Positions 2,995 through 51,926 of a DNA stretch of 64,000 bases are shown here, one piece after another (the first letter of the stretch is position 1; the number at the start of each line of letters is the position of its first letter). A model generated the notes under the pieces. It worked only from the letters and a program-made list of their open reading frames with translations, made no database searches and had not been told where the DNA came from. A program made the translations under genes and the position numbers. The DNA is from an uncultured Gammaproteobacteria bacterium (lineage in GTDB: Bacteria; Pseudomonadota; Gammaproteobacteria; JAURND01), in the NCBI GenBank assembly GCA_963714975.1, contig CAVQQD010000002.1:519641-583640 (forward strand), in the 5' to 3' direction.

Positions 2995-3984
2995 CTATAA
3001 CGCAGACCTTAGGTTAGAAACTTCTAGTTGTTGAGTGGAGTTTATTTGGGACGGCGCTGTAGTTGCGACACTCAGCATCCGATCCTGCTCTTGAGTAGTA
3101 CGGGCCATGGCTCTTGCTAATTCATGCTGAATGGCAGTTGCCTGAGGATCTTGCATGCGCTGTGCGGAATTATAGACAATGCTAGCAAGCCAGGCAGGAA
3201 ACTCTGCATTTCCCAGGTTGCGAATGCTTATCGCCACGGTACCATTGGGGCCTGATAATGTAGCCAGGCCTTGCATGTAGTTAGTATAGCTTTGGGAATC
3301 TTTCGCCAATGCTGCTGCCTGAATAGCCATCGCATAGGTCCACATGACATTGGAAAGAGAAGCTTTAATCTCCCTCTCCCCCGAAGATGGGAGAGAGTTG
3401 AGGAGAGGGGGCTCATAGTGCCCGTGTTGATATTGGACTGCCGCTTGGAGTGCTGCTTTATTGGCTTCATAGGCAGATTTATTATGCAATGCATAGTAAG
3501 AAAGCAGATAACCCAGGGCCCAACCAGCAAAAGCAGTATTTTCGCTATAATTTGCTTGAGTGGGAGCATACCGGGTTGAAGTGAGTGCAGGCCGCAAATC
3601 GGCTGCAATGCGGGCCGCTTCTTTTTCTTGACTGGCATGCATGGCAATTAATAATTGACGCCCTTTCATCCATAAACCAAATTCCAGACCTTCTTTGCCT
3701 TCAGCCAATAATGTTTTGAATTGCTCCGCAATTTTTGGATTCGTGTAATGCTTTGGATTAGCTAATAAAGGCATACTCATCTGGTAGGCAGTTTTAGCTT
3801 CTTGCAAATATTTTCCTGCTAATTCATTCACATTAACTGTCACTTGTTTGTGTTCTTGAAAATAACGGCTGCTCATGGGTTCCTCTGTTGTTGTTATGGA
3901 TAAACTACTGATTGAATCAAGCCCCAGGAGAAATCCTGTGACCACGATCACGACTATGTGCATAATATCTCTCTTTAACTTCAT
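2995..3984 (-). CDS. Hypothetical exported/membrane-anchored protein containing an in-frame dispersed-repeat insertion
   Basis: Start taken at internal Met 'MKLKRDIMHIVVIVVTGFLLGL' (signal/TM). The ORF track's longer 5' extension looks spurious. Repeat copy at 3371-3415 is translated in frame as '...EPPLLNSLPSSGEREIKAS...'. Confidence 0.5.
   Translation of the reverse strand: MKLKRDIMHIVVIVVTGFLLGLDSISSLSITTTEEPMSSRYFQEHKQVTVNVNELAGKYLQEAKTAYQMSMPLLANPKHYTNPKIAEQFKTLLAEGKEGLEFGLWMKGRQLLIAMHASQEKEAARIAADLRPALTSTRYAPTQANYSENTAFAGWALGYLLSYYALHNKSAYEANKAALQAAVQYQHGHYEPPLLNSLPSSGEREIKASLSNVMWTYAMAIQAAALAKDSQSYTNYMQGLATLSGPNGTVAISIRNLGNAEFPAWLASIVYNSAQRMQDPQATAIQHELARAMARTTQEQDRMLSVATTAPSQINSTQQLEVSNLRSAL
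3371..3415. repeat. Dispersed palindromic element (gggagaggg family) inserted in frame inside CDS 2995-3984
   Basis: ctccctctcccccgaagatgggagagagttgaggagagggggctc; paralogous to the copy at 19396-19445. Confidence 0.75.
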
Positions 3985-4054
3985 CGCTATTTCGAGGTTG
4001 CTATTGTAGCACGGGGGCTTATAATGACAAGCTGCAGTGTGAGCGTGTCGAAGG

Positions 4055-4112
4055 GGCATCTTCTCCCAAGGGGAGAGGAAATAATGTTGATGATAATAAT
4101 AGAGAGAGTGAT
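4055..4112. promoter_or_regulatory. Repeat-derived SD plus a 10-codon Ile-rich uORF (MLMIIIERVI) whose TGA overlaps the ATG of the downstream phosphatase gene (ATGA coupling)
   Basis: 'gggagaggaaataATGttgatgataataatagagagagtgatATGA' read directly; the same GGAGAAGGAATAATG module ends the repeat copies at 39175-39204 and 57066-57097. Confidence 0.4.
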
Positions 4113-4919
4113 ATGAGAAGATACTTATTAGCTGGTTTGATGTTTGTCTGGTGTATTGGTTCTTTGGCAGAAGCGCCACACGGGCCGGCATGCCGTCCTG
4201 GAGAAATTACGACGGCAAATGATTACATGGCAATTCAGTGGTATCGTACTTCCGCAGAGAAAAATGCTTTATACCGCGAGATATTTTCCATGGCTGAGCA
4301 ACAAGTTCGGGCAAAAAAACGCTTTTTGAAACTAGAGCCACAGCAATGGGGAGTTGTTTTTGATATTGATGATACGTTACTTGATAATAGCCTACACAGC
4401 TATGAAAATGCCTTGTACTGTGCTGGCCAACATTCTATTGGTTCAACCGCTTTCTTTGTGCGAGAAGTTTCCGTCCCGACACCGGGTGCTAAAAAAATTA
4501 CCTGTGATATTCGCAAGATGGGTGGTTATGTGTCATTAGTGAGCAATCGTGATGGGAATCAGACCGATCCACGGACTGGAAAGAATTTACTCGACGCCAC
4601 TGTAGAAAATTTAAAGAAAGCAGGCATTTGTTTTGATCAAGTAGTGCTGGCCAATTCAGTGAATGGGAATAAAAATCCGCGTTTCCAAGCCATTAACTCA
4701 GGCGAATATCCTGCGGATATGATTGTGACTCGCAAGCTGCCGGCGCATCGCGTCATCGCTTACTTTGGTGATAATATCCAGGACTTTCCCAATACATTTC
4801 AGCAAGAAATGAAGCAAGAAAATCCTGAAGGACAGGCTTATGCTAATTTTGGAATTTCTTATTTTGTGTTGCCAAATCCACTTTACGGTAGTTGGCAGCA
4901 TGCCACAAAAAAACCTTAA
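4113..4919 (+). CDS. HAD-superfamily acid phosphatase (subfamily IIIB, e(P4)/class B-C acid phosphatase-like), secreted
   Basis: Signal peptide 'MRRYLLAGLMFVWCIGSLA'; HAD motif I 'VVFDIDDTLLDNS'; length and motif order match e(P4)-type lipoprotein phosphatases. Confidence 0.7.
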   Translation: MRRYLLAGLMFVWCIGSLAEAPHGPACRPGEITTANDYMAIQWYRTSAEKNALYREIFSMAEQQVRAKKRFLKLEPQQWGVVFDIDDTLLDNSLHSYENALYCAGQHSIGSTAFFVREVSVPTPGAKKITCDIRKMGGYVSLVSNRDGNQTDPRTGKNLLDATVENLKKAGICFDQVVLANSVNGNKNPRFQAINSGEYPADMIVTRKLPAHRVIAYFGDNIQDFPNTFQQEMKQENPEGQAYANFGISYFVLPNPLYGSWQHATKKP

Positions 4920-4928
4920 GGAGTATTT

Positions 4929-6830: not shown

Positions 6831-6854
6831 TGGTATTCCTTTAGCAGCAGTCAC

Positions 6855-6903: not shown

Positions 6904-6909
6904 TTCAGG

Positions 6910-8799: not shown

Positions 8800-8834
8800 T
8801 TTTGTTTAGACTGTAGAAATGGGAGCTTTTATAC

Positions 8835-11799: not shown

Positions 11800-13209
11800 A
11801 TGGTGTTTAATCGTGATTATTTGTCCCAGATATTGCAGCAATTAAATTTACCACCTCAGATTATGGTTGCTTATAGCGGCGGCTTAGATTCCCACGCGCT
11901 GTTATATGCCCTAGTTGAGTTACGCAACTTAAATCCAGGACTTTCCTTGCGGGCAGTGCATATCGATCATGGCCTTAGTGCGCGTTCCGTCGAATGGAGT
12001 GCGCATTGTGTTAGGGTATGTCAACAATTAGCAATCGAATGTATCATCAAGAAAATCCAAGTTATAGCCGCCGAGGATAGTTTGGAAGAAGTGGCGCGAA
12101 ATTTAAGATATGCCGCTTTCGCTGAAATAATGATGCCCGGCGAATGTCTGGTGACGGCACACACCGTGGATGATCAAGCCGAAACCGTCTTGCTGCAATT
12201 ATTGCGAGGAGCAGGCATTCCAGGTTTGGCAGCAATGCCCGTGGTTAAACCATTGGGACCGGGTAAATTAGCTCGCCCGCTATTATCCATAAGTCGAGCA
12301 GCATTACATACTTTTGCGTGCGAAAAGCAATTACGTTGGATTGAAGATGAAAGTAACTTAAATACTAATTTTGATCGCAATTTTATTCGCCATCAGGTCT
12401 TGCCGATACTACGAAAGCGTTGGCCCAGTACGGCTAAAGTAATCGCCCGAACCGCGCGCCATTGTGCAGAAGCCAATGATTTACTAGCCGAACTTGCCAC
12501 ATCTGCAATTCCCGCTGAAGCCCTGTTCCCCGACGGGTCCTGCCGCGCGGGCAACCCGCCGTGCTCGCACACTGCGCGCGGCGTTGTTGCCCCACGCGTC
12601 ACCCGTCGGCCAAAGTACTATAGAGCGGAAATTGCTGATTCCATACTGGGCGGAAGGAGGGGAAATTTCGCGTTAACCATCTCATGCTTACAATCATTTG
12701 ATCCTAGTCAGCAAAAAAATGTATTGCGGGTGTGGCTGCGATCTCAGCAGTTTCGGGTGCCAAGTGAGGTGAAATTACATCAATTACAACAAGACTTTTT
12801 ACACTCCAAAGCGAGTGCAACGCCCTATATGCAATGGGCGGGAGTAGAGGTGCGACGTTTTAAGGATAATTTATACGCCATGCCACCCTTGTCCGCTCAT
12901 GATCCCGGAATAATCCTAACTTGGGATTTGCACCAGCCCCTGGCTTTACCCTCAGGTATCGGCGTTTTGCAACCGCACATGCTGGCAGCAGAAGGTGTCG
13001 ATCTCTCAAATGGTTCTTTAGTGACGATCCGTTTTCGGCAGGGGGGCGAACGGTTTAAGCCAGCAGGCCGTTTTGGGTCTCATCCTTTAAAAAAACTTTT
13101 TCAAGAATGGCAAGTACCGCCTTGGCTGCGTGATCGTATACCGCTCATTTATTTGGAAGGACATTTGGTCGCCGTGATTTGGCGGCCTTTTATTAGGGAT
13201 GTGGAGTAA
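11800..13209 (+). CDS. tilS: tRNA(Ile)-lysidine synthetase, carrying an in-frame GC-rich repeat insertion
   Basis: PP-loop 'AYSGGLDSHALL'; TilS C-terminal domain. The region 12527-12612 (about 70% GC) is translated as 'PDGSCRAGNPPCSHTARGVVAPRVTRRPKYY' and is paralogous to an insertion in nlpD. Confidence 0.85.
   Translation: MVFNRDYLSQILQQLNLPPQIMVAYSGGLDSHALLYALVELRNLNPGLSLRAVHIDHGLSARSVEWSAHCVRVCQQLAIECIIKKIQVIAAEDSLEEVARNLRYAAFAEIMMPGECLVTAHTVDDQAETVLLQLLRGAGIPGLAAMPVVKPLGPGKLARPLLSISRAALHTFACEKQLRWIEDESNLNTNFDRNFIRHQVLPILRKRWPSTAKVIARTARHCAEANDLLAELATSAIPAEALFPDGSCRAGNPPCSHTARGVVAPRVTRRPKYYRAEIADSILGGRRGNFALTISCLQSFDPSQQKNVLRVWLRSQQFRVPSEVKLHQLQQDFLHSKASATPYMQWAGVEVRRFKDNLYAMPPLSAHDPGIILTWDLHQPLALPSGIGVLQPHMLAAEGVDLSNGSLVTIRFRQGGERFKPAGRFGSHPLKKLFQEWQVPPWLRDRIPLIYLEGHLVAVIWRPFIRDVE
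12527..12612. repeat. GC-rich palindromic element (family 'gttgccccacgcgtcacccgtcgg') inserted in frame in tilS
   Basis: Inverted termini ccgacgggt ... acccgtcgg; shares 24-bp and 20-bp modules with 22858-22922 inside nlpD. Confidence 0.75.
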
Positions 13210-13504: not shown

Positions 13505-13777
13505 TTAGTCGATATCATCCTCATCGACATATTTTGCAAAGCTGCCTTTTTCGTGGACTTGCTGTGAAGCAGCATCTTTTATTCCTTGTGCCACTTTTTT
13601 CAAAGCAGCTTTATTATCAAATAACCATTTTTCGCGTGCTGGGATTTCGGTATAAGGCTCTAAAATAATTCGGTCATCTTTATCTTTTTTGATTAAAAAT
13701 CCACTCACACCCTCTGCCCATCGACCTAGGGTAATTCTGCCTTTGGAATCTGGTCTTACCATTTTTACACATTTCAT
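13505..13777 (-). CDS. AbrB/MazE/SpoVT-type swapped-hairpin antitoxin-like protein
   Basis: Start at 'MKCVKMVRPDSKGRITLGRWAEGVSGFLIKKDKDDRIILEP' preceded by GAGGTGAG SD and a TTGAAT-17-TATTCT promoter. The longer ORF in the track reads through upstream receiver-domain remnant and a repeat. Confidence 0.5.
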   Translation of the reverse strand: MKCVKMVRPDSKGRITLGRWAEGVSGFLIKKDKDDRIILEPYTEIPAREKWLFDNKAALKKVAQGIKDAASQQVHEKGSFAKYVDEDDID

Positions 13778-13785
13778 TTCACTCA

Positions 13786-13860
13786 CCTCACAAAAAAGAA
13801 TAGCCCTATGTGGGATATAATTCAAGTGGGAAATAAGAAAATGTCGGAACTCAGTGAAAA
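13786..13860. promoter_or_regulatory. Promoter/leader of the antitoxin gene (-35 TTGAAT, 17 bp, -10 TATTCT, SD GAGGTGAG); first copy of a duplicated ~70-bp segment
   Basis: Read on the minus strand; second copy at 14455-14525. Confidence 0.5.
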
Positions 13861-13861
13861 T

Positions 13862-13925
13862 GTCCCCATAAAAACTCAATAGAAATCCCCCTTTGAAAAA
13901 GGGGGGGTAGGGATTAAAGAGGTTG
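13862..13925. repeat. Dispersed palindromic element (ccccctttgaaaaaggggg / gggtaggg family)
   Basis: aaatccccctttgaaaaagggggggtagggatt; related copies at 2916-2983 and 24530-24645. Confidence 0.7.
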
Positions 13926-13989
13926 ACAACTACACAGCCAACGAACGGCGGCCGTTCTTGATTCTCAAAAAAGTAACCTGTTGGTGGCT

Positions 13990-14351
13990 GCGACAAAACT
14001 AATCTATTTAGTATTTGTTCGCATAATTCATATAGTACGGGTTTGTGCAGAAATCCGCCTAATTCTAGGTTTCGCGCTTCAGTTTTTAGTTTTTCATCCC
14101 CATGCGCGGTGGCGATGAGAATTGGTGTTTGGCTATATAGGGCCTGGGCTGTGCCGAAACTGGCGAGCAACTTCCATCCCATTTAAGTCGGGCAGACCCA
14201 GGTCACAGATGATTAACAGGTAGGGGTTATGCAGCTTCTCCAATGCGACTAGCCCACAATTGGCTATATCCACATGACAACCAAGCTGTTTAAAGGAGCC
14301 GCTGATGGCGCGGGTGGCCATTGGTTCGTCATCTCTGAAGGATGAAGACAT
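13990..14351 (-). pseudogene. Single-domain CheY-like response-regulator receiver, frameshifted
   Basis: N-terminal piece 'MSSSFRDDEPMATRAISGSFKQLGCHVDIANCGLVALEKLHNPYLLIICDLGLPDLNGMEVARQFR' and, in another frame, 'TPILIATAHGDEKLKTEARNLELGGFLHKPVLYELCEQILNRL'. Frame change near 14140-14180. Confidence 0.55.
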
Positions 14352-15462: not shown

Positions 15463-17298
<1,836 letters not shown>

Positions 17299-18121: not shown

Positions 18122-19445
<1,324 letters not shown>

Positions 19446-19724
19446 GTGAAACCAGCAACGATCTTTCTAGTTTCGTTAGTAATTTTACTTGCTGTATTGC
19501 AATATAAACTTTGGGTCTCTCCCGAGGGGGTCCCCCAATTTTGGAAATTAAAACATAGCATTCAGCAAGTACATAAAGAAAATGCAGTTCTCCAAGAAAG
19601 AAATGCTTGGGTAGTGAGGGAGGTCAAGGAATTAAAGCATGGTATGGACGGAGTTGAAGAACGCGCTCGTGATGATTTTGGTTTAACTAAACAAGGGGAA
19701 GTTTTTTATCAGATTGTTGAATAA
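19446..19724 (+). CDS. ftsB: Cell division protein FtsB
   Basis: GTG start at the TM helix 'VKPATIFLVSLVILLAVLQYKLW'; coiled coil; C-terminal 'EERARDDFGLTKQGEVFYQIV' matches FtsB. The track's longer N-terminus is repeat-derived. Confidence 0.75.
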   Translation: MKPATIFLVSLVILLAVLQYKLWVSPEGVPQFWKLKHSIQQVHKENAVLQERNAWVVREVKELKHGMDGVEERARDDFGLTKQGEVFYQIVE

Positions 19725-20463
19725 TTCCTTGGCCCCCCTCACCCTAACCCTCTCCCACGAGGGGAGAGGGGATTTTATAAAATACTGGGCTATTATTCCT
19801 GCTGCAGGTCTTGGTAGACGGTTTGGTTCTGACACGCCGAAACAATACCTAATGCTCAAGGATAAAACTATCTTAGAACATACCCTCAATGTTCTCTTAT
19901 CCTATCCTTTGTTTCAAAAAATAGTCGTTGTGCTAGCTTCAGCAGATCCTTATTGGTCAACATTAACATTACCCAGTCGCACTAAAGAGCGGATTATCTG
20001 CGTTACTGGGGGCCAAGAGCGTTACATTTCGGTATATCAAGGTCTGGAAGTCCTTGATAAAATAGCCGCTCCTGAGGATTGGGTACTGGTGCATGATGCG
20101 GTGCGCCCTTGTCTTAACCATGCTGATTTAGATCGGCTTATCCAGGCATTAAAAGATCATCCCGTAGGAGGGCTACTTGGCATTCCAGCGCAGGACAGTT
20201 TAAAAGCAGTTGATCCACAGCAGAATGTGCAGCACACCGTAGATCGATCCAACATTTGGCAAGCGCAATCACCACAAATGTTTCGGTTCAATAAATTAAA
20301 GCAAGCTTTGGAAAAAGTGATTCGAGAACAACAGTCAGTGACTGATGATGCGGGGGCCATTCAGCTATTAGGCGAATCACCCCTGATGGTTGAAGGTAGT
20401 CGAGAGAACATAAAAATAACACGTCCCGAAGATTTGTTACTGGCAGAGAAGTTTATGCTATAA
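19714..20463 (+). CDS. ispD: 2-C-methyl-D-erythritol 4-phosphate cytidylyltransferase with N-terminal 20 aa encoded by a repeat element
   Basis: 'AIIPAAGLGRRFGSDTPKQYL' IspD motif. The only in-frame start is the ATG at 19714, so 'MLNNSLAPLTLTLSHEGRGD' (repeat 19735-19780) is translated. Confidence 0.85.
   Translation: MLNNSLAPLTLTLSHEGRGDFIKYWAIIPAAGLGRRFGSDTPKQYLMLKDKTILEHTLNVLLSYPLFQKIVVVLASADPYWSTLTLPSRTKERIICVTGGQERYISVYQGLEVLDKIAAPEDWVLVHDAVRPCLNHADLDRLIQALKDHPVGGLLGIPAQDSLKAVDPQQNVQHTVDRSNIWQAQSPQMFRFNKLKQALEKVIREQQSVTDDAGAIQLLGESPLMVEGSRENIKITRPEDLLLAEKFML
19735..19780. repeat. Dispersed palindromic element (gggagaggg family) forming the 5' coding end of ispD
   Basis: cccctcaccctaaccctctcccacgaggggagagggga. 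Confidence 0.7.
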
Positions 20464-20600
20464 ATCCCCTCTCCCGCTTGCGAGAGCGGGTGCTGAAGGG
20501 GAACGTCGTCCCGGCATGGATGCCGGGATCCAGGGCATAAGGACATGAAACTTTAACGTCCTTGTTAACTGGATCCCGGCATCCTGCCGGGACGACGGTT
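20464..20600. repeat. Composite repeat between ispD and ispF: short gggagaggg-type palindrome plus about 100-bp 'cgtcgtcccggcatggatgccgggatcca...ggatcccggcatcctgccgggacgacg' element
   Basis: Long inverted termini acgtcgtcccggcatggatgccgggatcca / tggatcccggcatcctgccgggacgacg; paralogs at 37391-37488 and 44848-44946, partial at 24041-24117. Confidence 0.8.
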
Positions 20601-21982: not shown

Positions 21983-22566
21983 TGCGTCTTTTTTCTAAAT
22001 TATATAATCTGGTGATGAGTTGGTCTCAAAATCGTCATGCCCCTTATTACTTAGGTGCGGTCAGTTTTATTGAGTCTTCCCTATTTCCTATTCCCCCTGA
22101 TGTCATGTTAGCGCCGATGGTGATGGCCAAACCTGAGTCTGCTTGGCGCTATGCAGCATTGACAACTATCGCTTCGGTGTTGGGGGCGTTGTTTGGCTAT
22201 GTATTAGGCATGTTTTTTTTCCATTGGATCATGCCTTATTTTGAGCATTTGGGTTATCTCTCTGCCTACCAGCATGTGCAAACATGGTTTGCCGAATGGG
22301 GGGGCTGGGTTTTACTCGTGGTGGGTTTTACGCCCATTCCGTTTAAACTATTTACCATTGGCGCGGGAGCTCTGCATATGAGCTTGCTACCTTTTACTGT
22401 AGGGGTCTTTGTGGGAAGGGGTATGCGTTTTTATTTGGTATCTGGGTTTATGAAGTGGGGTGGAGCTAGCATGGATGCATTACTGCGACGCAGTGTTGAT
22501 TGGATTGGCTGGAGTGTAGTTGGTCTGATTATCGCAGGATATAGCATTTATGCCCTTTGGAAATAA
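21982..22566 (+). CDS. YqaA/DedA-related inner-membrane protein
   Basis: 'SFIESSLFPIPPDVMLAPM' aligns with the YqaA N-terminus; 4-5 TM segments. Confidence 0.6.
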   Translation: MRLFSKLYNLVMSWSQNRHAPYYLGAVSFIESSLFPIPPDVMLAPMVMAKPESAWRYAALTTIASVLGALFGYVLGMFFFHWIMPYFEHLGYLSAYQHVQTWFAEWGGWVLLVVGFTPIPFKLFTIGAGALHMSLLPFTVGVFVGRGMRFYLVSGFMKWGGASMDALLRRSVDWIGWSVVGLIIAGYSIYALWK

Positions 22567-23344
22567 ATTTAAAGCGGGAATTGCGGTTCTAATCCTAAGT
22601 TTATTGACACCGGCCTGCACGCTAACTCCCACGGAGGAGGCGCCGATCATTGATGGCTGGCAACAGCCGGCATTCAGTGGGGATTATCGAGTGCAGCCTG
22701 GGGACACTATTTATTCCATTGCTTGGTCTTTTGGGATGGATTATCGTGCTATTGCTAAGTTCAATCAGCTCACTGAGCCTTACCACTTACATCCTGGACA
22801 GTGGTTGTATATGGCTTCTCGTCCCGCAATTTCTGCTGCAGCTCTGATCCCCGAGGGTGTTGCCCCACGCGTCACCCGTCGGAGCACGGTGGGGTGCCGC
22901 AGCGGCAGGACCCGTCGGGCATCAGGGCTGCAGCGGGAATTGCTGAAGGATCCAGTGCACAGAGATGTGAAAGCGTCGTCCTGGCAATGGCCAACGGTTG
23001 GTAAAGTGGTACGTGGTTATTCACCTGCCTTTGGCGGCAATCGTGGTTTGGATATTAAGGGTAAGTTTAATCAACCGGTGTTAGCCGCTGCGGCAGGTAA
23101 AGTCGTTTATACCGGGTCAAGTATGCCGGGTTATGGTAATTTAATTATCATTAAGCATAATGATAATGATTTGAGCGCTTATGCGTTTAATAAGACCCTG
23201 ATGGTGACGGAAGGCCAGATAGTGAAGACGGGTCAGACGATCGCGATGATGGGGAAAAATGAGCGTGGTGAAACCATGTTGCATTTTGAAATTCGTCGAA
23301 GTGGCAAGCCTGTAGATCCTAGGAGATACTTAAAGAATGATTGA
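22550..23344 (+). CDS. nlpD: LysM/M23-peptidase lipoprotein NlpD-like, with in-frame GC-rich repeat insertion
   Basis: Lipoprotein signal '...LTPAC'; LysM 'YRVQPGDTIYSIAWSFGMDYRAIAKFNQL'; M23 domain 'GGNRGLDIKG...GYGNLIIIKH'. Insertion 22858-22922 translated as 'VAPRVTRRSTVGCRSGRTRRASG'. Confidence 0.8.
   Translation: MPFGNKFKAGIAVLILSLLTPACTLTPTEEAPIIDGWQQPAFSGDYRVQPGDTIYSIAWSFGMDYRAIAKFNQLTEPYHLHPGQWLYMASRPAISAAALIPEGVAPRVTRRSTVGCRSGRTRRASGLQRELLKDPVHRDVKASSWQWPTVGKVVRGYSPAFGGNRGLDIKGKFNQPVLAAAAGKVVYTGSSMPGYGNLIIIKHNDNDLSAYAFNKTLMVTEGQIVKTGQTIAMMGKNERGETMLHFEIRRSGKPVDPRRYLKND
22858..22922. repeat. GC-rich element (same family as in tilS) inserted in frame in nlpD
   Basis: gttgccccacgcgtcacccgtcggagcacggtggggtgccgcagcggcaggacccgtcgggc. 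Confidence 0.75.
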
Positions 23345-25265
23345 GCGCATCCAACGATTAGATACTTTATTAGCAAACCAAATTGCTGCCGGAGAAGTGG
23401 TGAGCCGTCCTGCCTCTGCGTTGAAAGAGTTAGTTGAAAATAGCTTGGATGCGGGGGCAACGCAGATTGAAGTGACGTTAGAAAAAGGCGGTATTCAATT
23501 AATTCGCGTCCGGGATAATGGTCGGGGGATTCATAAAGAAGATTTACCGTTGGCTTTAAGCCGACACGCCACCAGTAAAATTTCCACGCTGGAAGAGTTA
23601 GAATGCATCCAATCCTTAGGTTTTCGTGGAGAAGCTTTGGCGAGCATTGCTTCGGTATCACGTTTGGTTTTAACTTCGCGCCAAGCCAATGAAACTTTGG
23701 CCTGGCAAATTAAAGCGGAAGGTCGGACGGCAGAAATTGAATTTAATCCGGTATCTCATCCCATGGGCAGCACTATTGAAGTGCGCGATTTATTTTTTAA
23801 TACACCAGCGCGGCGAAAATTTTTACGCTCAGAAAAAACCGAATATTCCCACTGTGAGGAATTGATTAATCGCATTGCATTAGCTTCTTTTCATGTTGCT
23901 TTTGTGCTGAAACATAATCAAAAAACTATTTTGCAATTGCCTCCCGCTATTTCTCAAGCAGAACAAGAGCAACGCGTGGGCAAATTGTGCGGAAATTTTT
24001 TTATCGAACAAGCCAAGGCTATACAGATTGGAAACCATTCACCCGTCGTCCCGCTCCCGCGACTTGATCGCGGGATTGTCCGCGGGATCCAGGATCCAGA
24101 AAGCAGGGATGCAGGATTTTCATTAGCGGGTTGGTTGGGCTTGCCGATTATTTCGCGCGCGCAGGCTGATTTGCAATATTTCTATGTCAATGGGCGCATG
24201 GTCCGTGATAAGTTAATTACTCACGCCATTAAACAAGCGTACCACGATGTAATGTATGGTCATCGCTATCCCGCCTATGTGTTATTTCTTAGTTTGGATC
24301 CAACTTTGGTTGATGTTAATGTGCACCCCACAAAATCCGAGGTGCGGTTTCGTGACAGTCGCTTTATTTATGATTTTTTATTTAGTCGCATCCATGAATC
24401 TTTGGCGCAAAAAGAGCAAGTCACCGCTGGAATTTCTGCTATAGCCGATTCAATATTCGCGCCAGAACCATGGGGGATGCAGCATCAATTGCAGATTAGT
24501 GAAGCAAAAGCAGACTACTTAGCGTACCAGGAAATCCCCCCTACCCCTCTTTTTCAAAGGGGGGGCGATAAAATTCCCCCCTTTTTCGAGGATGGGGATC
24601 AAGAAATTCCCCCCTTTGAAAAAGGGGGGGTAGAGGGGATTTCCTGCAGTTTAGCTCCCAGCCCCGTGCGGGAACGACTTGAGGGAGCTCTAGGCTATGC
24701 TCTTGGCCAATTACATGGCATCTTCATCCTAGCCGAAAATCAACAAGGCTTAGTGATTGTCGACATGCACGCCGCTCACGAACGTATTTTGTATGAAGAA
24801 TTAAAGCTAGCTCATCAGCGCGAGAAAATTGTGCGCCAAACCTTGTTAATTCCACTGACTTTATCATTGACGACGCGAGAGGCGGACTATGTGCAAGAAC
24901 AACAAGCTTTGTTTGCTGAGCTTGGGTTTGAACTCGAGCGAATTAGCCCAACGAGTTGTATTATTCGCCAGGTTCCTGTGTTATTGAAACAGGTGGATGT
25001 TTTGCAGTTAATCCGTGATGTGATAGCAGATTTTCTAACTCTGGAGAAAAGCCAGCGCATCGAACAACAATTCCATAAAGTTTTGGCGACTATTGCCTGC
25101 CACAGCTCGGCACGGGCTCATCGCCGTCTTACCCTCCCGGAAATGAATGCACTGTTGCGGCAACTGGAACAGACCGACCGCAGCGGTCAGTGCAATCATG
25201 GCCGTCCTACGATCAGGCAGTTTTCCCTGGAAGAATTGGATAAGTTATTTTTAAGGGGAAGATAA
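23337..25265 (+). CDS. mutL: DNA mismatch repair protein MutL carrying two in-frame repeat insertions in its linker
   Basis: GHKL ATPase motifs (ELVENSLDAGAT, DNGRGI, GFRGEAL); C-terminal dimerisation domain (QCNHGRPT). Insertions at 24041-24117 ('PVVPLPRLDRGIVRGIQDPESRDAGFS') and 24530-24645 ('PTPLFQRGGDKIPPFFEDGDQEIPPFEKGGVEG'). Confidence 0.9.
   Translation: MIERIQRLDTLLANQIAAGEVVSRPASALKELVENSLDAGATQIEVTLEKGGIQLIRVRDNGRGIHKEDLPLALSRHATSKISTLEELECIQSLGFRGEALASIASVSRLVLTSRQANETLAWQIKAEGRTAEIEFNPVSHPMGSTIEVRDLFFNTPARRKFLRSEKTEYSHCEELINRIALASFHVAFVLKHNQKTILQLPPAISQAEQEQRVGKLCGNFFIEQAKAIQIGNHSPVVPLPRLDRGIVRGIQDPESRDAGFSLAGWLGLPIISRAQADLQYFYVNGRMVRDKLITHAIKQAYHDVMYGHRYPAYVLFLSLDPTLVDVNVHPTKSEVRFRDSRFIYDFLFSRIHESLAQKEQVTAGISAIADSIFAPEPWGMQHQLQISEAKADYLAYQEIPPTPLFQRGGDKIPPFFEDGDQEIPPFEKGGVEGISCSLAPSPVRERLEGALGYALGQLHGIFILAENQQGLVIVDMHAAHERILYEELKLAHQREKIVRQTLLIPLTLSLTTREADYVQEQQALFAELGFELERISPTSCIIRQVPVLLKQVDVLQLIRDVIADFLTLEKSQRIEQQFHKVLATIACHSSARAHRRLTLPEMNALLRQLEQTDRSGQCNHGRPTIRQFSLEELDKLFLRGR
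24041..24117. repeat. Partial 'cgtcgtccc...gatcgcgggatcca' family element in frame in the mutL linker
   Basis: acccgtcgtcccgctcccgcgacttgatcgcgggattgtccgcgggatccaggatccagaaagcagggatgcagga; compare 44848-44880. Confidence 0.7.
24530..24645. repeat. Two tandem copies of the 'ccccctttttcaaaggggg' palindromic element in frame in mutL
   Basis: ccccctacccctctttttcaaagggggggcgataaaattcccccctttttcgaggatggggatcaagaaattcccccctttgaaaaagggggggtagagggga. Confidence 0.75.
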
Positions 25266-29156: not shown

Positions 29157-29228
29157 ATCCTGACCATTCTGACACCAATTCCGTTTTGGTCATGACTAAA
29201 ACGGAATTGGTGTCAGAATGGTCAGGAT
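29157..29228. repeat. 72-bp near-perfect palindrome (32-bp arms, GTCATGAC centre) between ATPase paralog 2 and clpB
   Basis: atcctgaccattctgacaccaattccgttttgGTCATGACtaaaacggaattggtgtcagaatggtcaggat; one mismatch; no trailing T-run. Confidence 0.8.
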
Positions 29229-29305
29229 GATATTATCATTTGAAACTCTGAGCAGGATCCCCATATTATGGTTAATGAACTTAACTCTTGAAATCGGAGG
29301 AAATA

Positions 29306-32941: not shown

Positions 32942-32961
32942 AGCAATCTCCTGGGTTTCAA

Positions 32962-33056
32962 GTGTCATCCCGAGCGCAGCGAGGGATCTGTTGTTCATGC
33001 CACATTCATGAGAATCCCTCGCTTCGCTCGGGATGACACCGCTCGGGATGACACCT
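32962..33056. repeat. Dispersed palindromic element (gtcatcccgagcgaagcgagggatc family) abutting the maeB stop codon
   Basis: gtgtcatcccgagcgcagcgagggatctgttgttcatgccacattcatgagaatccctcgcttcgctcgggatgacaccgctcgggatgacacc; 'gccacattcatgaga' block shared with 58563-58625. Confidence 0.75.
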
Positions 33057-34737: not shown

Positions 34738-34770
34738 TATTATTTTTCACTAGTATCAGATTTTTGCCAG

Positions 34771-34830
34771 GTGTCATCCCGACTCCAGGGTTGTCATCCC
34801 GAACGAAGTGAGGGATCCCTCGCTGCGCTC
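34771..34830. repeat. Inverted arm and core of a gtcatcccga-family element immediately upstream of maeB
   Basis: gtgtcatcccgactccagggttgtcatcccgaacgaagtgagggatccctcgctgcgctc. Confidence 0.75.
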
Positions 34831-35057
34831 GGGATGACACCCTGGAGTCGGGATGACACCCTGGAGTCGGGATGACACCCTGGAGTCGGGATGACACCCT
34901 GGAGTCGGGATGACACCCTGGAGTCGGGATGACACCCTGGAGTCGGGATGACACCCTGGAGTCGGGATGACACCCTGGAGTCGGGATGACACCCTGGAGT
35001 CGGGATGACACCCTGGAGTCGGGATGACACCCTGGAGTCGGGATGATGCCCCGAGAG
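34831..35057. repeat. Tandem repeat: 19-bp unit gggatgacaccctggagtc x 11 perfect copies plus a degenerate 12th
   Basis: Units begin at 34831, 34850, 34869 ... 35021; derived from the right arm of the adjacent palindromic element. Not CRISPR-like (no spacers). The three overlapping minus-strand ORFs with 19-aa repeats in the track are artefacts of this array. Confidence 0.9.
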
Positions 35058-35987
35058 TCATGTTTTTTTTTCTTGCTTTTGTTCCTTTTTTTCTTCCTCG
35101 AAGTGGGGATTCGCAGTTGGTATCAAACTAATTAATCGCTTGTGATTTCCTTTCGTTTTGTTGCTCTCTGGATGATTTTGAATTCGAATATATTCTATGC
35201 CACTGGTTTGATCTTCTTGCCAGGGCAAGTGCTGATATACACTTTCACCAATCAATGGCAGCACAGGATATTTAATGATATCGAAAAACGGGGAGAAATC
35301 AAAATCTTTGGGAGTGAACAAGCGTGGGTTGCGACTCACCAGAGTGATTCCTTCTTTATCTTCAATGATTTCCGGTAAAATCGGGAAGTGCACTGTTTGA
35401 AATGCGCTAGCAATCATTGAAGAACATATTTCCTCCGTGGGTTTTAGCGCGTTATGTACAAATAAGGTAGAACGCCATTTTCTGGGCAAAACTCCCCACG
35501 GAAATAAAAAACGAAATAAATCGATCACATGCCTGAGACTATAGCGCATTCCAAGGTGGTTAATGCCATAGCCAATCACTTTTTGTGCGTCTTCGCGTGA
35601 TAGCCCACGGGGGCGGCAGATGCGAATATTGTAATCTTTGTAGCGCACCAGCGAGGTCACAATAGTTCCCCGGCCGACCATGCTTTCAATCAGCAATTGC
35701 TCATCTGGTGGCCCTTTGTAATATTTTTTAACCTGAGCTCGCAGGTGAATATCATCGATATCATACAGGCGACCAATATACAGGGTAGAGTGAGACCACA
35801 TGCTATGAGTGACCTGCTTAATAATATCACTCATGCGATTACGCCCTTCTACCAGCAGGACATCGCCAGGTCTGATTTCAAAACGAATTTTTTCAAAATC
35901 GTATAAAAAGGCCGGTTTTAGTGGGGGTTCGCGTAAGAACCATTTGCTAAAACTAATAATAATCCGTTGGGCAAATTTAGACTTCAT
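35058..35987 (-). CDS. Hypothetical protein, possibly YiiX/permuted-papain-fold (NlpC/P60-like) family
   Basis: Start 'MKSKFAQRII' 1 nt after the purB stop. 'PGDVLLVEGRNRMSDIIKQVTHSMWSHSTLYIG' resembles YiiX-type motif. Lys/Glu-rich C-terminal tail. Assignment tentative. Confidence 0.4.
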   Translation of the reverse strand: MKSKFAQRIIISFSKWFLREPPLKPAFLYDFEKIRFEIRPGDVLLVEGRNRMSDIIKQVTHSMWSHSTLYIGRLYDIDDIHLRAQVKKYYKGPPDEQLLIESMVGRGTIVTSLVRYKDYNIRICRPRGLSREDAQKVIGYGINHLGMRYSLRHVIDLFRFLFPWGVLPRKWRSTLFVHNALKPTEEICSSMIASAFQTVHFPILPEIIEDKEGITLVSRNPRLFTPKDFDFSPFFDIIKYPVLPLIGESVYQHLPWQEDQTSGIEYIRIQNHPESNKTKGNHKRLISLIPTANPHFEEEKKEQKQEKKT

Positions 35988-39229: not shown

Positions 39230-40260
39230 ATGAAAATTTTATTTTGGTTAACAGGACTAGCACTGCTAGTCTCAAGTGCTGCCTTAGCGGACACCATATT
39301 AACTGGAGCGGGTGCCACTTTCCCTTATCCACTTTACGTCAAATGGGCACAGGCCTATCAGAAGAAAATCGCTGTGCGTTTAAATTATCAACCTATTGGT
39401 TCGGGTGGCGGTATTAATCAGATACAAGCTAAAACAGTGGATTTTGGCGCTTCAGATAAGCCTTTATCGAAAGAAGAGTTAACAGCTAGTCACTTAATCC
39501 AATTTCCTACAGTGGTGGGTGGGGTGGTTCCTGTGATTAATTTGCTTGGAATCCCCAGTGGACAGCTGAAACTTTCAGGTCCAGTCTTAGCCAATATTTA
39601 TTTAGGTAAAATTAAAAAATGGAATGACCCAGCCATTGTGGCTTTAAATCCACAGCTTTCCCTACCGAATAAAGGTATTGTAGTAGTCCATCGTTCTGAT
39701 GGTTCAGGGACAAGCTATCTCTTTACCTACTATTTAAGTCAGGTAAGCCCAGAATGGCAAACGCGGGTAGGTAGTAATACAGCAGTGGCTTGGCCTGTGG
39801 GAATTGGCGGGAAAGGTAATGAAGGGGTAGCTTCCTATACCCAGCGGGTCAATGGCAGTATTGGTTATGTTGAGTATGTCTATGCGGCACAAAATAAACT
39901 GAACTATGTGCAATTGATTAATCAAGCAGGCCATGCAGTTTCTCCTTCATTAGAATCTTTTGAAGCAGCGGTAAGTCAGCTACTTGGGATTCAGAGCAGC
40001 AATTTGCTGGCAGCATTACCAATAGCCCAGGTGCAGATAGTTGGCCTATTACTGGCGCCACATTTATCCTGATGCAAACTGAACAAGATAATCCTGAAAA
40101 AGCCAAGGCAGTATTGGCATTCTTTGCTTGGGCCTATAAAGAGGGACAAGCAATGACCAAGGAATTAGATTATGTTCCTTTAGAAGATAAGGAAATTCAG
40201 CTAATTCAAGCCTCTTGGAAGCAAAATATTAAAGACAAGGCAGGAAACCCCATTTGGTAA
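39230..40260 (+). CDS. pstS: Phosphate ABC transporter substrate-binding protein PstS, apparent single-base deletion frameshift near 39967
   Basis: CAGGAG RBS; signal peptide; PstS sequence. The C-terminal 95 aa continue in the +1 frame ('...ASGKSATWDSEQQFAGSITNSPGADSWPITGATFILMQTEQD...[10 protein letters not shown]'). Two ORFs in the track (39230-40072, 40072-40260). Confidence 0.75.
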
Positions 40261-42113
40261 CTAAATTGTCACAGCAATTCCAAACCCAGCGCCGCTTCGA
40301 TCAACTGTTATTGGCAGTTGCTCTTTTCTTTGCCATTGTTTTACTCGTATTAGCTGGCTGTATTGTTTTTAAATTGTATCAGGCTAGCATCCCAAGCCTC
40401 CAAGCCTTTGGTTTGAGGTTTTTGATTAGCAGCGAATGGAATCCGGTAACCGAGCAGTTTGGTGCTTTAGTCGCAATTTTAGGGACTTTAACTACAGCTT
40501 TTATTGCGCTTTTGCTAGGAATCCCGATTAGCTTTGGTATTGCTGTATTTCTTACTGAGCTAGCTCCGACTATGCTTCGTCGCCCGTTACGCATTTTAAT
40601 TGAATTACTTGCTGGAATTCCCAGTATTATTTATGGCATGTGGGGACTGTTTATTTTTGCTCCCCTTTTCGCAGACACAGTCCAGCCTTGGTTAATCGAA
40701 CATTTGGGTAGTAGACCCCTAATTGGCCCATTTTTCCAAGGGGTCCCAATGGGAATTGGGATATTAACCGCTGGAATTGTACTCAGTATTATGGTGATTC
40801 CTTTTATTGCCTCGGTAATGCGTGATGTTTTTGAGATTGTACCTGATCTACTTAAAGAATCTGCCTATGCTTTGGGCGCCACTCGTTGGGAAGTAGTGTG
40901 GAATGTGATCCTACCCTATTCTCGTATTGGTGTTGTGGGTGGAATTATTTTGGGATTAGGCCGTGCTTTGGGAGAGACAATGGCAGTCGCTTTTGTGATT
41001 GGCAATTCACATGCATTATCCGCCTCAATTTTGATGCCAGGCAGCAGCATTTCCTCAGTATTAGCCAATGAATTTACTGAGGCCACTGGAAAAATTTATA
41101 GCTCCTCTTTAAGCGAATTAGGGTTAATTTTGTTTGCGATCACTTTAGTGGTTTTTGTGTGTGCCAAGTTATTGACGCAGAGGTTAAAAAAGATCCTCCT
41201 CTCTCATGCCTTCTCCCCTTGTGGGAGAAGGCGCCGAAGGCGGATGAGGGGAAAACCGGAAAAAAATATGACACTACTGTATATTAAACGCAGATTAGTT
41301 AATTTTATTAATCTATCCCTTGCGACCTTGGCTATGCTGATTGGCCTATTGTGGCTAAGCTGGATTTTATTTAGCCTGGTTCAAAATGGCTTACCAGGTT
41401 TCTCTTGGGCACTTTTTACCCAGATTACCCAAGCACCGGGTGGCCAAGGTGGGTTATTAAATGCCATTATTGGCAGTTTATTAATCGTGTTTTTTGCGGT
41501 CATCATTGGTGCTCCCATCGGTTTATTAGTGGGCACTTATCTTGCCGAGTTTGGAAAATATAGCCGATTTGCCCGCATCGTACGCTTTGTTAATGATATT
41601 TTATTGAGTGCTCCGTCGATTATTTTAGGTTTGTTTATTTATCAACTCTATGTCGTCAATGTGCAACATTTTTCAGGCTGGGCTGGTTCTTTTGCCTTAG
41701 CATTCTTAGTGGTGCCTATTGTCGTGCGCATTACCGAAGATATGTTTCTATTAGTGCCTAGTTCATTGCGAGAAGCGGCGGCTGCTTTAGGTGCTCCGCG
41801 GTGGAAAGTAATTGCTGAAATTGTGCTACGGGTGTCGAGAACGGGGGTGATCACTGGGATTCTATTAGCTTTAGCCAGGATTAGCGGTGAGACAGCCCCC
41901 TTGTTATTTACTGCGTTAAATAACCAATTTTTGAGCTTTAATATGAACCACCCCATGGCCAATTTACCTTCAGTAATTTTTCAGTATGCCATGAGTCCTT
42001 ATGCCGATTGGCACCAATTAGCATGGGCAGGAGCATTACTCATTACCGCCTGTGTTTTGGGATTGAATATTATCGTGAGAGTTGTGTTTAAACAAAAGCC
42101 GCCAATCACTTAG
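40254..42113 (+). CDS. pstCA: PstC-PstA phosphate permease as one 619-aa ORF, joined through an in-frame repeat element
   Basis: Residues 1-300 align to PstC and 330-619 to PstA ('[34 protein letters not shown]...'). Junction '[24 protein letters not shown]' is encoded by the repeat at 41205-41262 with no stop codon. Confidence 0.8.
41205..41262. repeat. Dispersed palindromic element (gggagaagg family) occupying the pstC/pstA junction, open in frame
   Basis: ctctcatgccttctccccttgtgggagaaggcgccgaaggcggatgaggggaaaacc. Confidence 0.75.
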
Positions 42114-44847: not shown

Positions 44848-44946
44848 ACGTCGTCCCGCGACTTGATCGCGGGATCCATGCCATTGAGACGCACGAAACG
44901 TTAACTTCCCTGCTCCCTGGATTCCAGCTTCCATGCTGGGACGACG
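44848..44946. repeat. About 100-bp 'cgtcgtccc...gggacgacg' family element
   Basis: aacgtcgtcccgcgacttgatcgcgggatccatgccattgagacgcacgaaacgttaacttccctgctccctggattccagcttccatgctgggacgacg. Confidence 0.8.
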
Positions 44947-47668: not shown

Positions 47669-47700
47669 TTTTTATCCTTTTTAGGTTAAGCCACCGCGAT

Positions 47701-48255: not shown

Positions 48256-48368
48256 TATGGTTACTCCTTTATTCCGAGTGCATTCAATCTCTCCAATCCT
48301 AGCTTAAAACAAGGGGTCCCCTCAACCGTAAGAACGTAGGAACCCCCTCATCTCAAGTTTATTACTTC

Positions 48369-49406: not shown

Positions 49407-49429
49407 CTTCAGAAGGCCAGCCTTGAGGA

Positions 49430-50511
49430 TTAACGCAACTTCAGCGAAGCGAGTCCGCATAGCACCAGCATGAAGGTAATAATCCAAAACCGCACGATTA
49501 CTCGAGGTTCAGGCCAGCCTTTGAGCTCAAAATGGTGATGAAGGGGAGCCATTTTAAAAATACGTTTACCGGTGAGCTTAAATGAAGCGACCTGTAATAT
49601 CACCGAAAGCGTTTCTATTACAAATACCCCGCCCATAATAAAGAGCACTAATTCTTGGCGAACAATTACTGCCACAATACCTAAAGCAGCGCCTAGTCCT
49701 AAAGCGCCTACATCACCCATAAATACCTGGGCAGGATAAGTGTTGAACCATAAAAAGCCTAAGCCTGCTCCGACCAGAGCGGCGCAAAAGACTGCGACTT
49801 CTCCTGCACCAGGGACATAGGGAATGGTTAAATATTTAGAAAATTCAAAATTACCACTTAAATAAGCAAAAATAGCCATAGCGCCAGCGACCATTACTGT
49901 GGGCAGAATGGCCAGCCCATCTAGGCCATCAGTCAGGTTGACGGCATTACTGGTGCCGACAATCACAAAATAAGCCAATAAAATATACAACAAACCTAAG
50001 TTAATACTGACATTCTTGAGATAGGGAATTAACAACTGGGTTTCAGCAGGTGTTTTCGCCATGTAGTAGAGAATAACAGCGATGGTAATACCCAATATAG
50101 ATTGCCAAAGATATTTCCAGCGCGCTGGTAAACCACTGGGTGATTTCTTGCTAAGTTTTAGATAATCATCTAACCATCCAATAATGCCAAATCCCAGCAT
50201 ACCAAACAGGGTTAGCCAAATGTAGGGATTGGCTAAATACCCCACAACAAAATGCTGGCGCTGATAGCAATGAGGATTAGGGTGCCTCCCATAGTGGGTG
50301 TGCCGGCTTTGGAGAAATGGCTCTTCGGTCCATCGTTGCGCACCACTTGCCCGACTTGATGATGACTGAGCGCATCAATCATTTTGGGGCCGACAATCAG
50401 AGCGATCACCAGCGCAGTGAGCGCGGCGAGAATCGAGCGAAAAGTGAGATATTGAAAAACCCGAAAGCCTTCGTAATAGTGTTGTAAAAATTGCGTTAGC
50501 CAAAGTAACAT
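49430..50511 (-). CDS. mraY: Phospho-N-acetylmuramoyl-pentapeptide transferase; apparent -1 error in a G4 run near 50246
   Basis: Two ORFs (50233-50511, 49430-50245) align to MraY. Adding one G to 'ttgtggggtattta' restores '...[14 protein letters not shown]...'. Confidence 0.85.
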
Positions 50512-50512
50512 A

Positions 50513-51926
50513 TTAAGCCTCTCCTTCTAAAGCAGCGACAATTTTCCCATTTTGCATCGAGCGCGATCCTTTAATCAATGCGGTCGTTTGAGCATTAAGT
50601 TGTAATTTCAAGGCAGCAATTAATTGCTGTTGTTCAGAAAAATGTTGGGCTTGCTGACCAAAGGCTGCTACTGCTAAGCGGCTCAACTCACCATAGGCAA
50701 ATAATTGCGTAATGCCCAAACGCTGTGCTTCATAGCCAAGCAATTTTAATGAAATATTCGGGCCCATAGGAGCCTAATTCTTTCATGTCGGCAAGTACCA
50801 AAATTTTAATTCCGGGCATATGAGCTAATACTTCAATAGCTGCTTGGGCTGAGCGTGGATTGGCATTGTAACTATCATCAATAATCCGTGCGCCATTGGT
50901 TAAGTATTTTATTTGTAAGCGTTTGTTTACCGCTTGAGTATTTTCCAAGCCCTGTTTTATCGCAGTCAATGGTATATTCAGTGCGCAAGCGCAAGCAGCT
51001 GCTGCCAAGGCATTGGCAATATTATGTTTTCCTAGCAGAGGCAGTTGAATAAAAATGGTTCCATAGGGGGTATGTAGAGTAAATTCAGGATTTCCTTCGG
51101 GATTTATTAAGGGACTTTCTGCCCAAATAGATGCTTTTTTCTGAAGGCCAAAGTGGAGAATTTTCTTGGTTGGCACGAGAGATTCCCAATAGGGGGCAAA
51201 GTGATCGTCAGCATTAATGATGGCAATTCCAGTCTCATCGAGTCCGCGAAAAATTTCGCCTTTTGCCTGTGCTACTCCTTCTAGAGTTTGTACTCCTTGC
51301 AAATGAGCAGGTGCTGCATTAGTAATTAGGGCAATGGTCGGATGAGCGAGCTGCGATAAATGAGCAATTTCACCAAAATGATTCATCCCTATTTCAATCA
51401 CGGCATATTGATGATCAGAATTTAATCCCAATAGGGTCAGCGGGACACCGATTTCATTATTAAAACTTTTTTCGCTAGCCAAAACTTTGTTGGATCCCTC
51501 GCTGCGCTCGGGATGACACCCCTGCTCGGGATGACACGCCTGCTCGGGATGACCCCCCCCCTGCTGCAGAATGCTGGCGAGCATAGAGCGCACGGTAGTT
51601 TTACCACAACTACCGGTGATGCCGATCATTGGCAGCGTAAATTGTTGCCGATGAAAACGCGCAAATTGTCCCAGTGCCTGAATCGTGTCGTTGACTTGTA
51701 GCTGTGGTAGCGGGCAGGGCAGGGGGTGCTGGACCAAGGCGGCAGCGGCCTGCTGTTGTTTTGCCATGGCAATAAAATCATGGCCATCGAAATGAGGGCC
51801 TTTGATGGCGACAAATAATTCTCCAGGTTGTAAGCTGCGGGTATCCGTGCTCACACCTTGAAAACAGACATCTGCGCCTAACAGTTGGCCGCTAAGTAAA
51901 TGGCTAAGACTTGAAAGTTGTATCAT
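50513..51926 (-). CDS. murF: UDP-MurNAc-pentapeptide synthetase MurF; apparent single-base indel near 50760, plus an in-frame repeat insertion
   Basis: ORFs 50730-51926 and 50513-50767 match the MurF N- and C-terminal parts. Frame change at 'tatgggcccgaat' (ggg/ccc runs). The 51492-51561 element is translated '[23 protein letters not shown]' just after the P-loop 'GSCGKTT'. Confidence 0.85.
51492..51561. repeat. gtcatcccga-family element with three partial 15-bp tandem units and a C9 homopolymer, in frame inside murF
   Basis: ggatccctcgctgcgctcgggatgacacccctgctcgggatgacacgcctgctcgggatgaccccccccc; C-run 51553-51561. Confidence 0.8.

Follow-up and report, generated by a model that had tools for sequence, protein, structure and literature searches.

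Several families of short palindromic repeats were found inserted in frame within conserved housekeeping genes of an uncultured gammaproteobacterium, in a 64-kb stretch of its chromosome (contig CAVQQD010000002.1, positions 519,641 to 583,640). This stretch is referred to below as the window, to which the densities and copy counts of the repeats in this genome refer. About ten such insertions occur among its roughly 58 genes, with copies in tilS, nlpD, mutL (two), murF, pyrG, ispD, a conserved hypothetical gene and the junction of pstC and pstA (Table 1). Most probably, several non-autonomous families of the repetitive extragenic palindromic (REP) type have colonised this small-genome gammaproteobacterium, and genic copies have been kept where the reading frame and the insertion site tolerate them. 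The kind of repeat and its in-frame insertion are already known, from Rickettsia in particular, to which the window adds a second, dense example; what is new is the density, the apparent PstC-PstA fusion together with the insert adjacent to the MurF P-loop, and the exact occurrence of one family across phyla. All loci claimed in the original prediction, which a model made from the DNA sequence, were recovered by self-BLAST and repeat finding, with the frame intact relative to orthologues; the copy at the pstC-pstA junction is an addition to that list.

Self-comparison of the window (self-BLAST and a repeat finder) yielded about 35 repeat intervals, totalling about 2 kb. The sequence TCGGGATGAC occurs 22 times against 0.11 expected, and the hairpin CTTCTCCC-N5-GGGAGAAG eight times against 0 expected. 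Family A is a G+C-rich palindrome of 118-131 nt with inverted termini of 12-34 nt, and has only two copies in the window, in tilS and nlpD, which had been assigned to one GC-rich family and do have an exact 25-mer in common. Family B (about ten copies) consists of CCCCTCATCCGCCCTTCGGGCA followed by the hairpin CCTTCTCCC-loop-GGGAGAAGG, and family B' of CCCTCTCCC-loop-GGGAGAGGGTTAGGGAGAGGGG. The family C unit, (C/T)GTCATCCCGAGCG(A/C)AGCGAGGGATC, usually forms an inverted pair with a spacer of 20-25 nt, and its outer end often bears partial tandem copies of ...GCTCGGGATGAC. Family D is C6-loop-G6-TA-G6ATTT, with palindromic composites thereof, while family E is CGTC-GTCCCGCGA-CTTGA-TCGCGGGAT-CCA and variants. 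The block gccacattcatgaga, placed earlier at 32975 and 58565 and taken to join families C and D, actually lies at 32999 and 58575, in family C both times. Folding predictions give very stable RNA structures (z -5 to -15) for the intergenic dimers as well as for the elements in tilS, nlpD and pyrG and the second one in mutL, in agreement with the palindromic nature ascribed to the repeats; this does not extend to the murF copy (z -0.4) and the first mutL copy (z -1.9), which are half elements or tandem units and not palindromic as wholes. Of the tandem arrays, the two in coding sequence repeat every 18 and 33 nt, compared with every 19, 15 and 14 nt for the others, a difference that is suggestive only. 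No Rfam family was matched at the gathering threshold, and a relaxed threshold gave only spurious matches to microRNA hairpins.

The family A copy in tilS contributes 42 extra residues, missing from 11 of 11 homologues and from E. coli TilS (1ni5), with which the alignment breaks at residue 232. The insertion site is the linker between the ATPase and substrate-binding domains. REP-like inserts of their own are borne by other environmental TilS homologues (P0047, P0080, P0087, P0021 and P0053). In P0080 ('HSRESGNL'), P0087 ('PPFSKG') and P0047, which belong to other lineages, the insert lies at or near the same interdomain linker, and such repeated independent insertion supports the view that the site is permissive. 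In NlpD the element occupies the linker between the LysM and M23 domains (Pfam limits), which is hypervariable among homologues. The extents first given for these two copies (12527-12612 and 22858-22922) were too small, the elements having long inverted termini.

Two elements interrupt mutL. The family E element encodes residues G232-S256, a segment that neither E. coli MutL nor any of 10 homologues has. In the closest relative, the mutL DNA can be aligned to either side of this insert and is exactly 75 nt shorter, representing an empty site, and none of the repeat families is present on that relative's 9-kb contig. (In the same relative, at locus L224, 594-6998, nlpD and mutL are separated by a 2134-residue gene without a Pfam match, no gene lying between the two in the window.) The second insert is a family D composite, matched by the copies at 2916-2982 and 13887-13910, which spans residues about 398-438. 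An AlphaFold model built from a shallow alignment gives a predicted local distance difference test (pLDDT) score below 50 at residues 234-258 and 360-450. The proposal that both inserts sit in the MutL linker holds for the second, which lies in the disordered interdomain linker, and not for the first, which is placed in an N-terminal-domain loop, with the ATPase subdomain on one side and the transducer subdomain on the other.

In the remaining cases the repeats lie within or at the ends of conserved coding sequences, or between two of them. MurF carries about 22 extra residues directly after the P-loop helix, as had been noticed, and these are missing from the E. coli and P. aeruginosa enzymes. 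Homology in PyrG stops at residue 564 of 611, leaving 47 repeat-derived final codons (about 45 had been estimated). IspD homology begins at residues 14-25, in keeping with the repeat origin proposed for its first codons; the only candidate start codons are the TTGs at 19714 and 19729, with none downstream of the repeat, so that the repeat must be translated. The gene at 2995-4191, described before as a secreted hypothetical, is conserved in that it has six homologues, while its net insertion proved to be only about 8-9 residues. At the pst locus, a family B hairpin joins two genes into a single open reading frame (ORF), in which matches to the NCBIfam models PstC and PstA cover residues 11-313 and 340-615, respectively, suggesting a possible repeat-mediated gene fusion. 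Compared with orthologues the inserts are lineage-specific, and their sites are loops, linkers or termini.

In addition to these in-frame insertions, roughly 25 further copies are intergenic. Since intergenic DNA is a small share of the window, gene interiors are strongly under-represented among the copies, as expected if selection removes most genic insertions. Alternatively, the peptides might serve as functional modules under selection, modifying mismatch repair or other enzymes, an idea already put forward as speculation for REPs in repair genes, instead of being neutral passengers. The presence of two inserts in mutL, the excess of REPs in replication and repair genes reported by Di Nocera et al. 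(PMC3733652) and the repeated hits on the TilS linker across lineages are compatible with this. The hosts nevertheless have unrelated functions, most copies of these DNA families are intergenic, and the inserts map to disordered or variable regions, the recurrent TilS hits being equally explained by permissiveness; selection for function is therefore regarded as very unlikely, and we infer near-neutrality of the inserts.

Table 1. Repeat elements in coding sequence and selected intergenic copies, with host gene limits in brackets
Element	Location	Position	Strand	Remarks
Family A palindrome	tilS (11800-13209)	12505..12635	+	about 131 nt; inverted termini GCAATTCCCGCT.../...AGCGGAAATTGC; fold -67 kcal/mol, z -5.2
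Family A	nlpD (22550-23344)	22826..22943	+	118 nt; inverted termini about 34 nt; fold -84 kcal/mol, z -7.6
Family E (CGTC-4/RPE-4-like REP)	mutL (23337-25265)	24030..24104	+	75 nt = 25 residues, GNHSPVVPLPRLDRGIVRGIQDPES
Family D composite	mutL	24528..24650	+	123 nt; three C6/G6 hairpin units, period 33 (Tandem Repeats Finder, 2.7 copies); fold -79 kcal/mol, z -11.8
Family C unit + two 18-nt partial tandem units	murF (50513-51926)	51488..51562	-	period 18, 2.9 copies (Tandem Repeats Finder)
Family B' fragment + family C inverted dimer	3' end of pyrG (15463/15526-17298)	17150..17290	+	141 nt; fold -85.5 kcal/mol, z -10.9
Family B' (BoxC/triplex-motif)	ispD (19714-20463)	19726..19775	+	codons about 5-20
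Family B'	conserved hypothetical gene (2995-4191, called as 354 aa)	3368..3415	-	translated EPPLLNSLPSSGEREI; diverged copy
Family B hairpin	joins pstC and pstA	41200..41256 (also given 41205-41252)	+	one 619-codon ORF, 40254-42113
Family B'	between eno and ftsB	19405..19444	+	5' untranslated region or ftsB N-terminal codons, depending on start codon
Family E head-to-head dimer	between ispD and ispF	20500..20600	+	101-nt palindrome; z -12.5
Full-length family C inverted dimer	intergenic	32960..33056	+	abuts malic-enzyme stop codon; z -7.4
Family C dimer + 19-nt tandem array of its terminal unit	intergenic	34770..35058	+
Nested palindrome, family D within CCCTCTCCCAC/GTGGGAGAGGG stem	intergenic	2912..2986	+	z -15.4
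Mosaic of family B' copy + family C half element	intergenic	58504..58626	+

The original prediction had likened the repeats to Rickettsia palindromic elements (RPEs) while holding that their sequences differ from those of known elements. The resemblance is closer than that, and most of the families have counterparts elsewhere. CGTC-tagged REPs, as defined by Di Nocera et al. in 2013 (PMC3733652), consist of an unpaired CGTC/TGTC (or CCTC) tag, an 8-9-bp stem, a 4-5-nt loop and a tail of approximately CCA, and occur mostly as head-to-head dimers; RPE-4 and RPE-6 of R. conorii correspond to CGTC-4 and CGTC-1, respectively. In family E, CGTC precedes the stem at 20504, 24041 and 44854. The copy at 44854, GTCCCGCGA/CTTGA/TCGCGGGAT/CCA, has a 9-bp stem (first pair G-T), a 5-nt loop and a CCA tail, all within the published sizes, and the two units at 20504-20597 form a head-to-head dimer. 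The first MutL insert reads VVPLPRLDRGIVRGIQ and contains PRLDRGI, while the R. conorii CGTC-4 peptides tabulated in PMC3733652 include AIPRLDRGIQ (RC0679) and AIPRLDLGI (RC0355). Judged by these sequence features, family E is a CGTC-3/4-type REP, encoding the same PRLDRGI peptide as R. conorii CGTC-4 (= RPE-4). Its 28-mer has no match in IMG/VR.

Family C shows CGTC or TGTC before ATCCC at 17169, 17181, 32962 and 34791. Its unit, ATCCC-GA-GC-GAA-GC-GA-GGGAT with a CT tail, has a 5-bp stem and an 11-nt interior, and resembles CGTC-1 (ATTCCC-N8-GGGAAT) in layout only. Head-to-head dimers are formed at 17181/17228, 32962/33013 and 34791/34814, as at most loci in other phyla. The family may be described as CGTC-like, with the tag, the ATCCC...GGGAT stem base and the dimer habit in common and with different stem and loop sizes. 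Its 25-mer was found exactly in at least 120 stretches from about nine phyla (one genome per species scanned), the listed hosts comprising Acidobacteriota, Gemmatimonadota, Alpha-, Beta- and Gammaproteobacteria, Verrucomicrobiota, Chloroflexota, Bacteroidales and a Patescibacteria metagenome-assembled genome (MAG), and many of the listed genomes being long-read soil MAGs. A further 11 contigs in IMG/VR contain it. In the other genomes too, most family C units are paired in inverted orientation, with spacers that vary, and the partial tandem copies are often present as well. In unrelated phyla (e.g. loci L008, L016, L029, L038 and L041 of L001-L120), the partial tandem ...GCTCGGGATGAC follows the family C unit at varying spacing, which hints at a common mode of amplification.

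Family B' corresponds to the intrastrand triplex motif of E. coli, BoxC/TMECO, which was described by Holder et al. in 2015 (PMC4666352) from over 260 genomes, with triplexes found by those authors in vitro only on single strands. The consensus, CCCTCTCCC-loop-GGGAGAGGG-TTA-GGG[A/T]GAGGGG, is found at 19405-19444 and 19726-19775 (reverse strand), and in diverged form at 3368-3415. The ispD copy has 87% identity over 47 nt to the E. coli repeat (BLAST); of 5426 complete E. coli genomes, 5410 contain that repeat, with a median of 17 sites per genome. By this similarity, family B' is the E. coli BoxC/triplex-motif repeat. The family B 26-mer occurs in 61 IMG/VR stretches and in two alphaproteobacterial loci (Reyranellaceae and Vineibacter) in the same composite layout, and the family D hairpin followed by G6ATTT in 31 IMG/VR stretches with a G+C content of 0.42-0.68. 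Assignment of family D to the GTAG-tagged REPs was considered and rejected, its TAG lying 3' of the hairpin and not at the 5' end. A literature search by sequence string found no paper for families C and B; the family B' string did match one. The family A 21-mer has no exact match in IMG/VR or in JGI metagenomes, so this family appears private to the lineage, and it is the sole one that looks lineage-specific. With its length of 118-131 nt and termini of 12-34 nt, family A has the size (50-500 bp) and terminal inverted repeats of a miniature inverted-repeat transposable element (MITE).

Several known systems may be compared with these repeats. The RPEs (Ogata et al. 2000, 2002; RPE-4, RPE-6) are likewise short palindromes that occupy permissive sites of unrelated housekeeping genes, in frame and within a small genome, and RPE-4/CGTC-4 matches family E in the layout of tag, stem, loop and tail and in the PRLDRGI(Q) peptide. 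By contrast, the host of the window is a gammaproteobacterium and not Rickettsia (alphaproteobacteria), BoxC-type repeats and family A are also involved, and one copy may fuse two genes. The comparison with Rickettsia covered sequences other than the long RPE-1 type. The GTAG/CGTC-tagged REP superfamilies (PMC3733652) share with the window repeats the CGTC/TGTC tag, the hairpin with a short tail, head-to-head dimers, occurrence in many phyla, and in-frame copies within genes, repair genes being frequent hosts. Family C differs from them in having a 5-bp stem, tandem G-A mismatches and a GC-GAA-GC tip rather than an 8-9-bp stem and a 4-5-nt loop, in the frequent partial tandem copies of its outer end, and in spanning about nine phyla here as against five for the CGTC repeats in that study. 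REPs lying wholly within ORFs were tabulated there for many species (Opitutus terrae accounts for about 70 rows and R. conorii for about 30, with Sphingomonas, Rhodopseudomonas, Coxiella and others also represented), with repair and replication genes over-represented as hosts, and the surviving copies were argued to sit in flexible linkers or loops. The suggestion that the system had not been described in this form therefore does not hold, in-frame REPs in housekeeping and DNA-repair genes of many species having been on record since 2013. A 2024 review calls in-frame MITE fusions 'not unusual' and treats RPEs as the extreme case, the same elsewhere being only conjectured.

BoxC/TMECO (PMC4666352) agrees with family B' in the order of pyrimidine, purine and purine blocks and in the near-identical sequence GGGAGAGGGTTAGGG[A/T]GAGGGG, and families B and D have the same three-block layout; BoxC/TMECO is intergenic according to that study, whereas three to four copies here are in coding sequence. 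REPINs mobilised with REP-associated tyrosine transposases (RAYT) (Bertels and Rainey) resemble the family C and E dimers in forming a long hairpin from an inverted REP pair with a short spacer. They differ in that families C and E carry a CGTC/TGTC and not a GTAG tag, and in that no RAYT gene was found among the window ORFs scanned; REPINs are moreover described as vertically inherited and usually species-specific, unlike family C, which is identical across phyla. Another gammaproteobacterial MITE/REP system is that of QMITE1 and QMITE2 in Coxiella burnetii (Wachter et al. 2018, PMC5896051), which overlap gene ends, extend C-termini (enhC) or lie in frame within ORFs, and in which the QMITE2 REP is also found in alphaproteobacteria; among genes of known function, only 3' ends are affected. 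An identification of the window elements as QMITEs of Coxiella burnetii was rejected on published size (300-400 and 150-190 bp against 25-141 nt here) and on the distance of the nearest TilS (54% identity).

Under the preferred explanation, CGTC-tagged REPs (family E and the related family C), BoxC/triplex-motif repeats (B', B and D) and the MITE-like palindrome of family A would have spread through the chromosome, with the majority of copies ending up intergenic. Genic copies would persist only if their length keeps the frame without a stop codon and the site is structurally permissive, whether in a linker between domains, in a surface loop or among the codons at either end of the gene. The surviving genic copies would be transcribed and then translated into additional peptide segments, probably disordered ones; in some cases they may lengthen the protein at its C-terminus (pyrG), provide its N-terminus (ispD) or join neighbouring genes (pstC-pstA).

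Several points weigh against this explanation. The case for translation of the inserts is made from intact reading frames. Family C departs from the strict stem and loop sizes of the published CGTC families. No clear target-site duplications (direct repeats) were seen by eye flanking the two family A copies, and neither a transposase nor a Y1_Tnp domain was found among the window ORFs scanned. Finally, frameshifts in murF, mraY and clpB indicate imperfect sequence or decaying host genes, murF itself being an insert host. In murF a single-base frameshift lies near 50750, downstream of the repeat insert, and in mraY (49430-50511) one lies near 50245, at a G run, while clpB (29288-31898) is split into at least three ORFs (Clp_N, AAA and lid; first part of AAA_2; D2-small), implying at least two frameshifts. 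Because many of the genomes with family C are long-read soil MAGs, the frameshifts in the window may be sequencing errors or, alternatively, signs of true gene decay; those in murF and mraY may be either long-read homopolymer errors or true pseudogenes. As each in-frame insert has colinear conserved coding sequence on both sides, the frameshifts do not undermine the inserts.

The frameshifts bear on two further alternatives. In one, the repeats within genes would be artefacts, arising from chimeric joins or long-read metagenome errors, to which the prevalence of long-read soil MAGs among family C genomes and the 100% identity of a 19-nt array over 11.5 copies would also point. This is considered extremely improbable, given that ten separate insertions all keep the frame between colinear conserved sequences, that similar TilS-linker inserts occur in independent assemblies of other lineages and in-frame copies in finished genomes in the literature, and that the exact window proteins are recorded in NCBI/ENA. 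In the other, the host genes would be pseudogenes in a degrading host-restricted genome, with the repeats marking decay. A response-regulator fragment near 13900-14182 and the small size of the contig (1.24 Mb) fit such a view, yet tilS, nlpD, mutL, pyrG, ispD and pstCA are full-length, with invariant catalytic residues kept and 50-70% identity to homologues throughout, no stop or frameshift occurs within or beside the inserts, and the frameshifts elsewhere are isolated single-base events. Gene decay is accordingly given only a slim chance.

The colonisation of a small genome by REP-type repeats, as proposed above, provides a natural experiment on the tolerance of essential enzymes for inserted peptides, with MurF, MutL, TilS and PstCA as a concrete system for tolerance tests, and may open a way to new protein segments and gene fusions. 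With about one insertion per six window genes, and with families common to E. coli, Rickettsia and soil bacteria of many phyla, the window shows that the process is general. It also carries a warning for annotation, as odd extra segments in conserved MAG proteins may be REP-derived. The identity of family C in about nine phyla, its recurrent partial tandem copies and the lack of a known transposase may reflect an undescribed mode of mobilisation or spread. The literature links no transposase to CGTC-tagged REPs. The combined proposal that the window has the highest in-frame REP density yet seen, making it an independent 'Rickettsia-like' case, and that family C has spread by undescribed trans-acting mobilisation or horizontal transfer rather than ancient vertical descent, is speculative and on balance unlikely to be correct as a whole. 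If true, it would provide, besides Rickettsia, another lineage in which the tolerance or use of such inserts by proteins could be tested.

The window has a G+C content of about 43% and a typical gammaproteobacterial set of housekeeping genes, including pncB, ffh, tilS, pyrG-kdsA-eno-ftsB-ispD-ispF-surE, nlpD-mutL, clpB, malic enzyme, purB, znuCB, pstSCAB-phoBR, tsaD and the cluster mraZ-rsmH-ftsL-ftsI-murE-murF-mraY. No tRNA or tmRNA genes and no insertion sequence elements were found in it. The exact TilS, MutL and PyrG proteins are recorded in NCBI/ENA on a single 1.24-Mb contig. The closest homologues have 54% identity for TilS and 63-69% for MutL, and the best named homologues of both are gammaproteobacterial (e.g. 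Pseudomonas and Alcanivorax, about 52%). From these distances, the host is placed as a deep-branching uncultured gammaproteobacterium, and not Coxiella.

Among the intergenic copies, the 19-nt array (TCGGGATGACACCCTGGAG, 11.5 copies at 34829-35046) is flanked by the malic-enzyme gene and a gene for a C92 peptidase and derives from the family C outer end; it was rejected as a CRISPR array, there being no spacers and all 11.5 copies being identical. Between murE and murF, a family B copy (51961-52045) overlaps the murE stop codon, and the final murE codons (IPSPL*) may be repeat-derived. A 453-codon ORF without a family match (56961-58322) includes a family B hairpin (57061-57097) close to its 3' end and extends beyond it towards mraZ, its true end being uncertain. 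A 72-nt near-perfect palindrome, family F (29157-29228, single window copy, z -14.5), is unrelated to the other families and lies between a DUF4143 ATPase gene and clpB. Paralogous AAA_14/DUF4143 ATPase genes (25281-26465 and 27974-29152) are on opposite strands, either side of a 398-aa ORF without a family match. Two direct-repeat pairs of about 80% identity (13763-13841/14441-14519 and 14340-14412/15128-15200) indicate local duplication of a small cassette, which adjoins a response-regulator remnant and an AbrB-like ORF (13505-14182).

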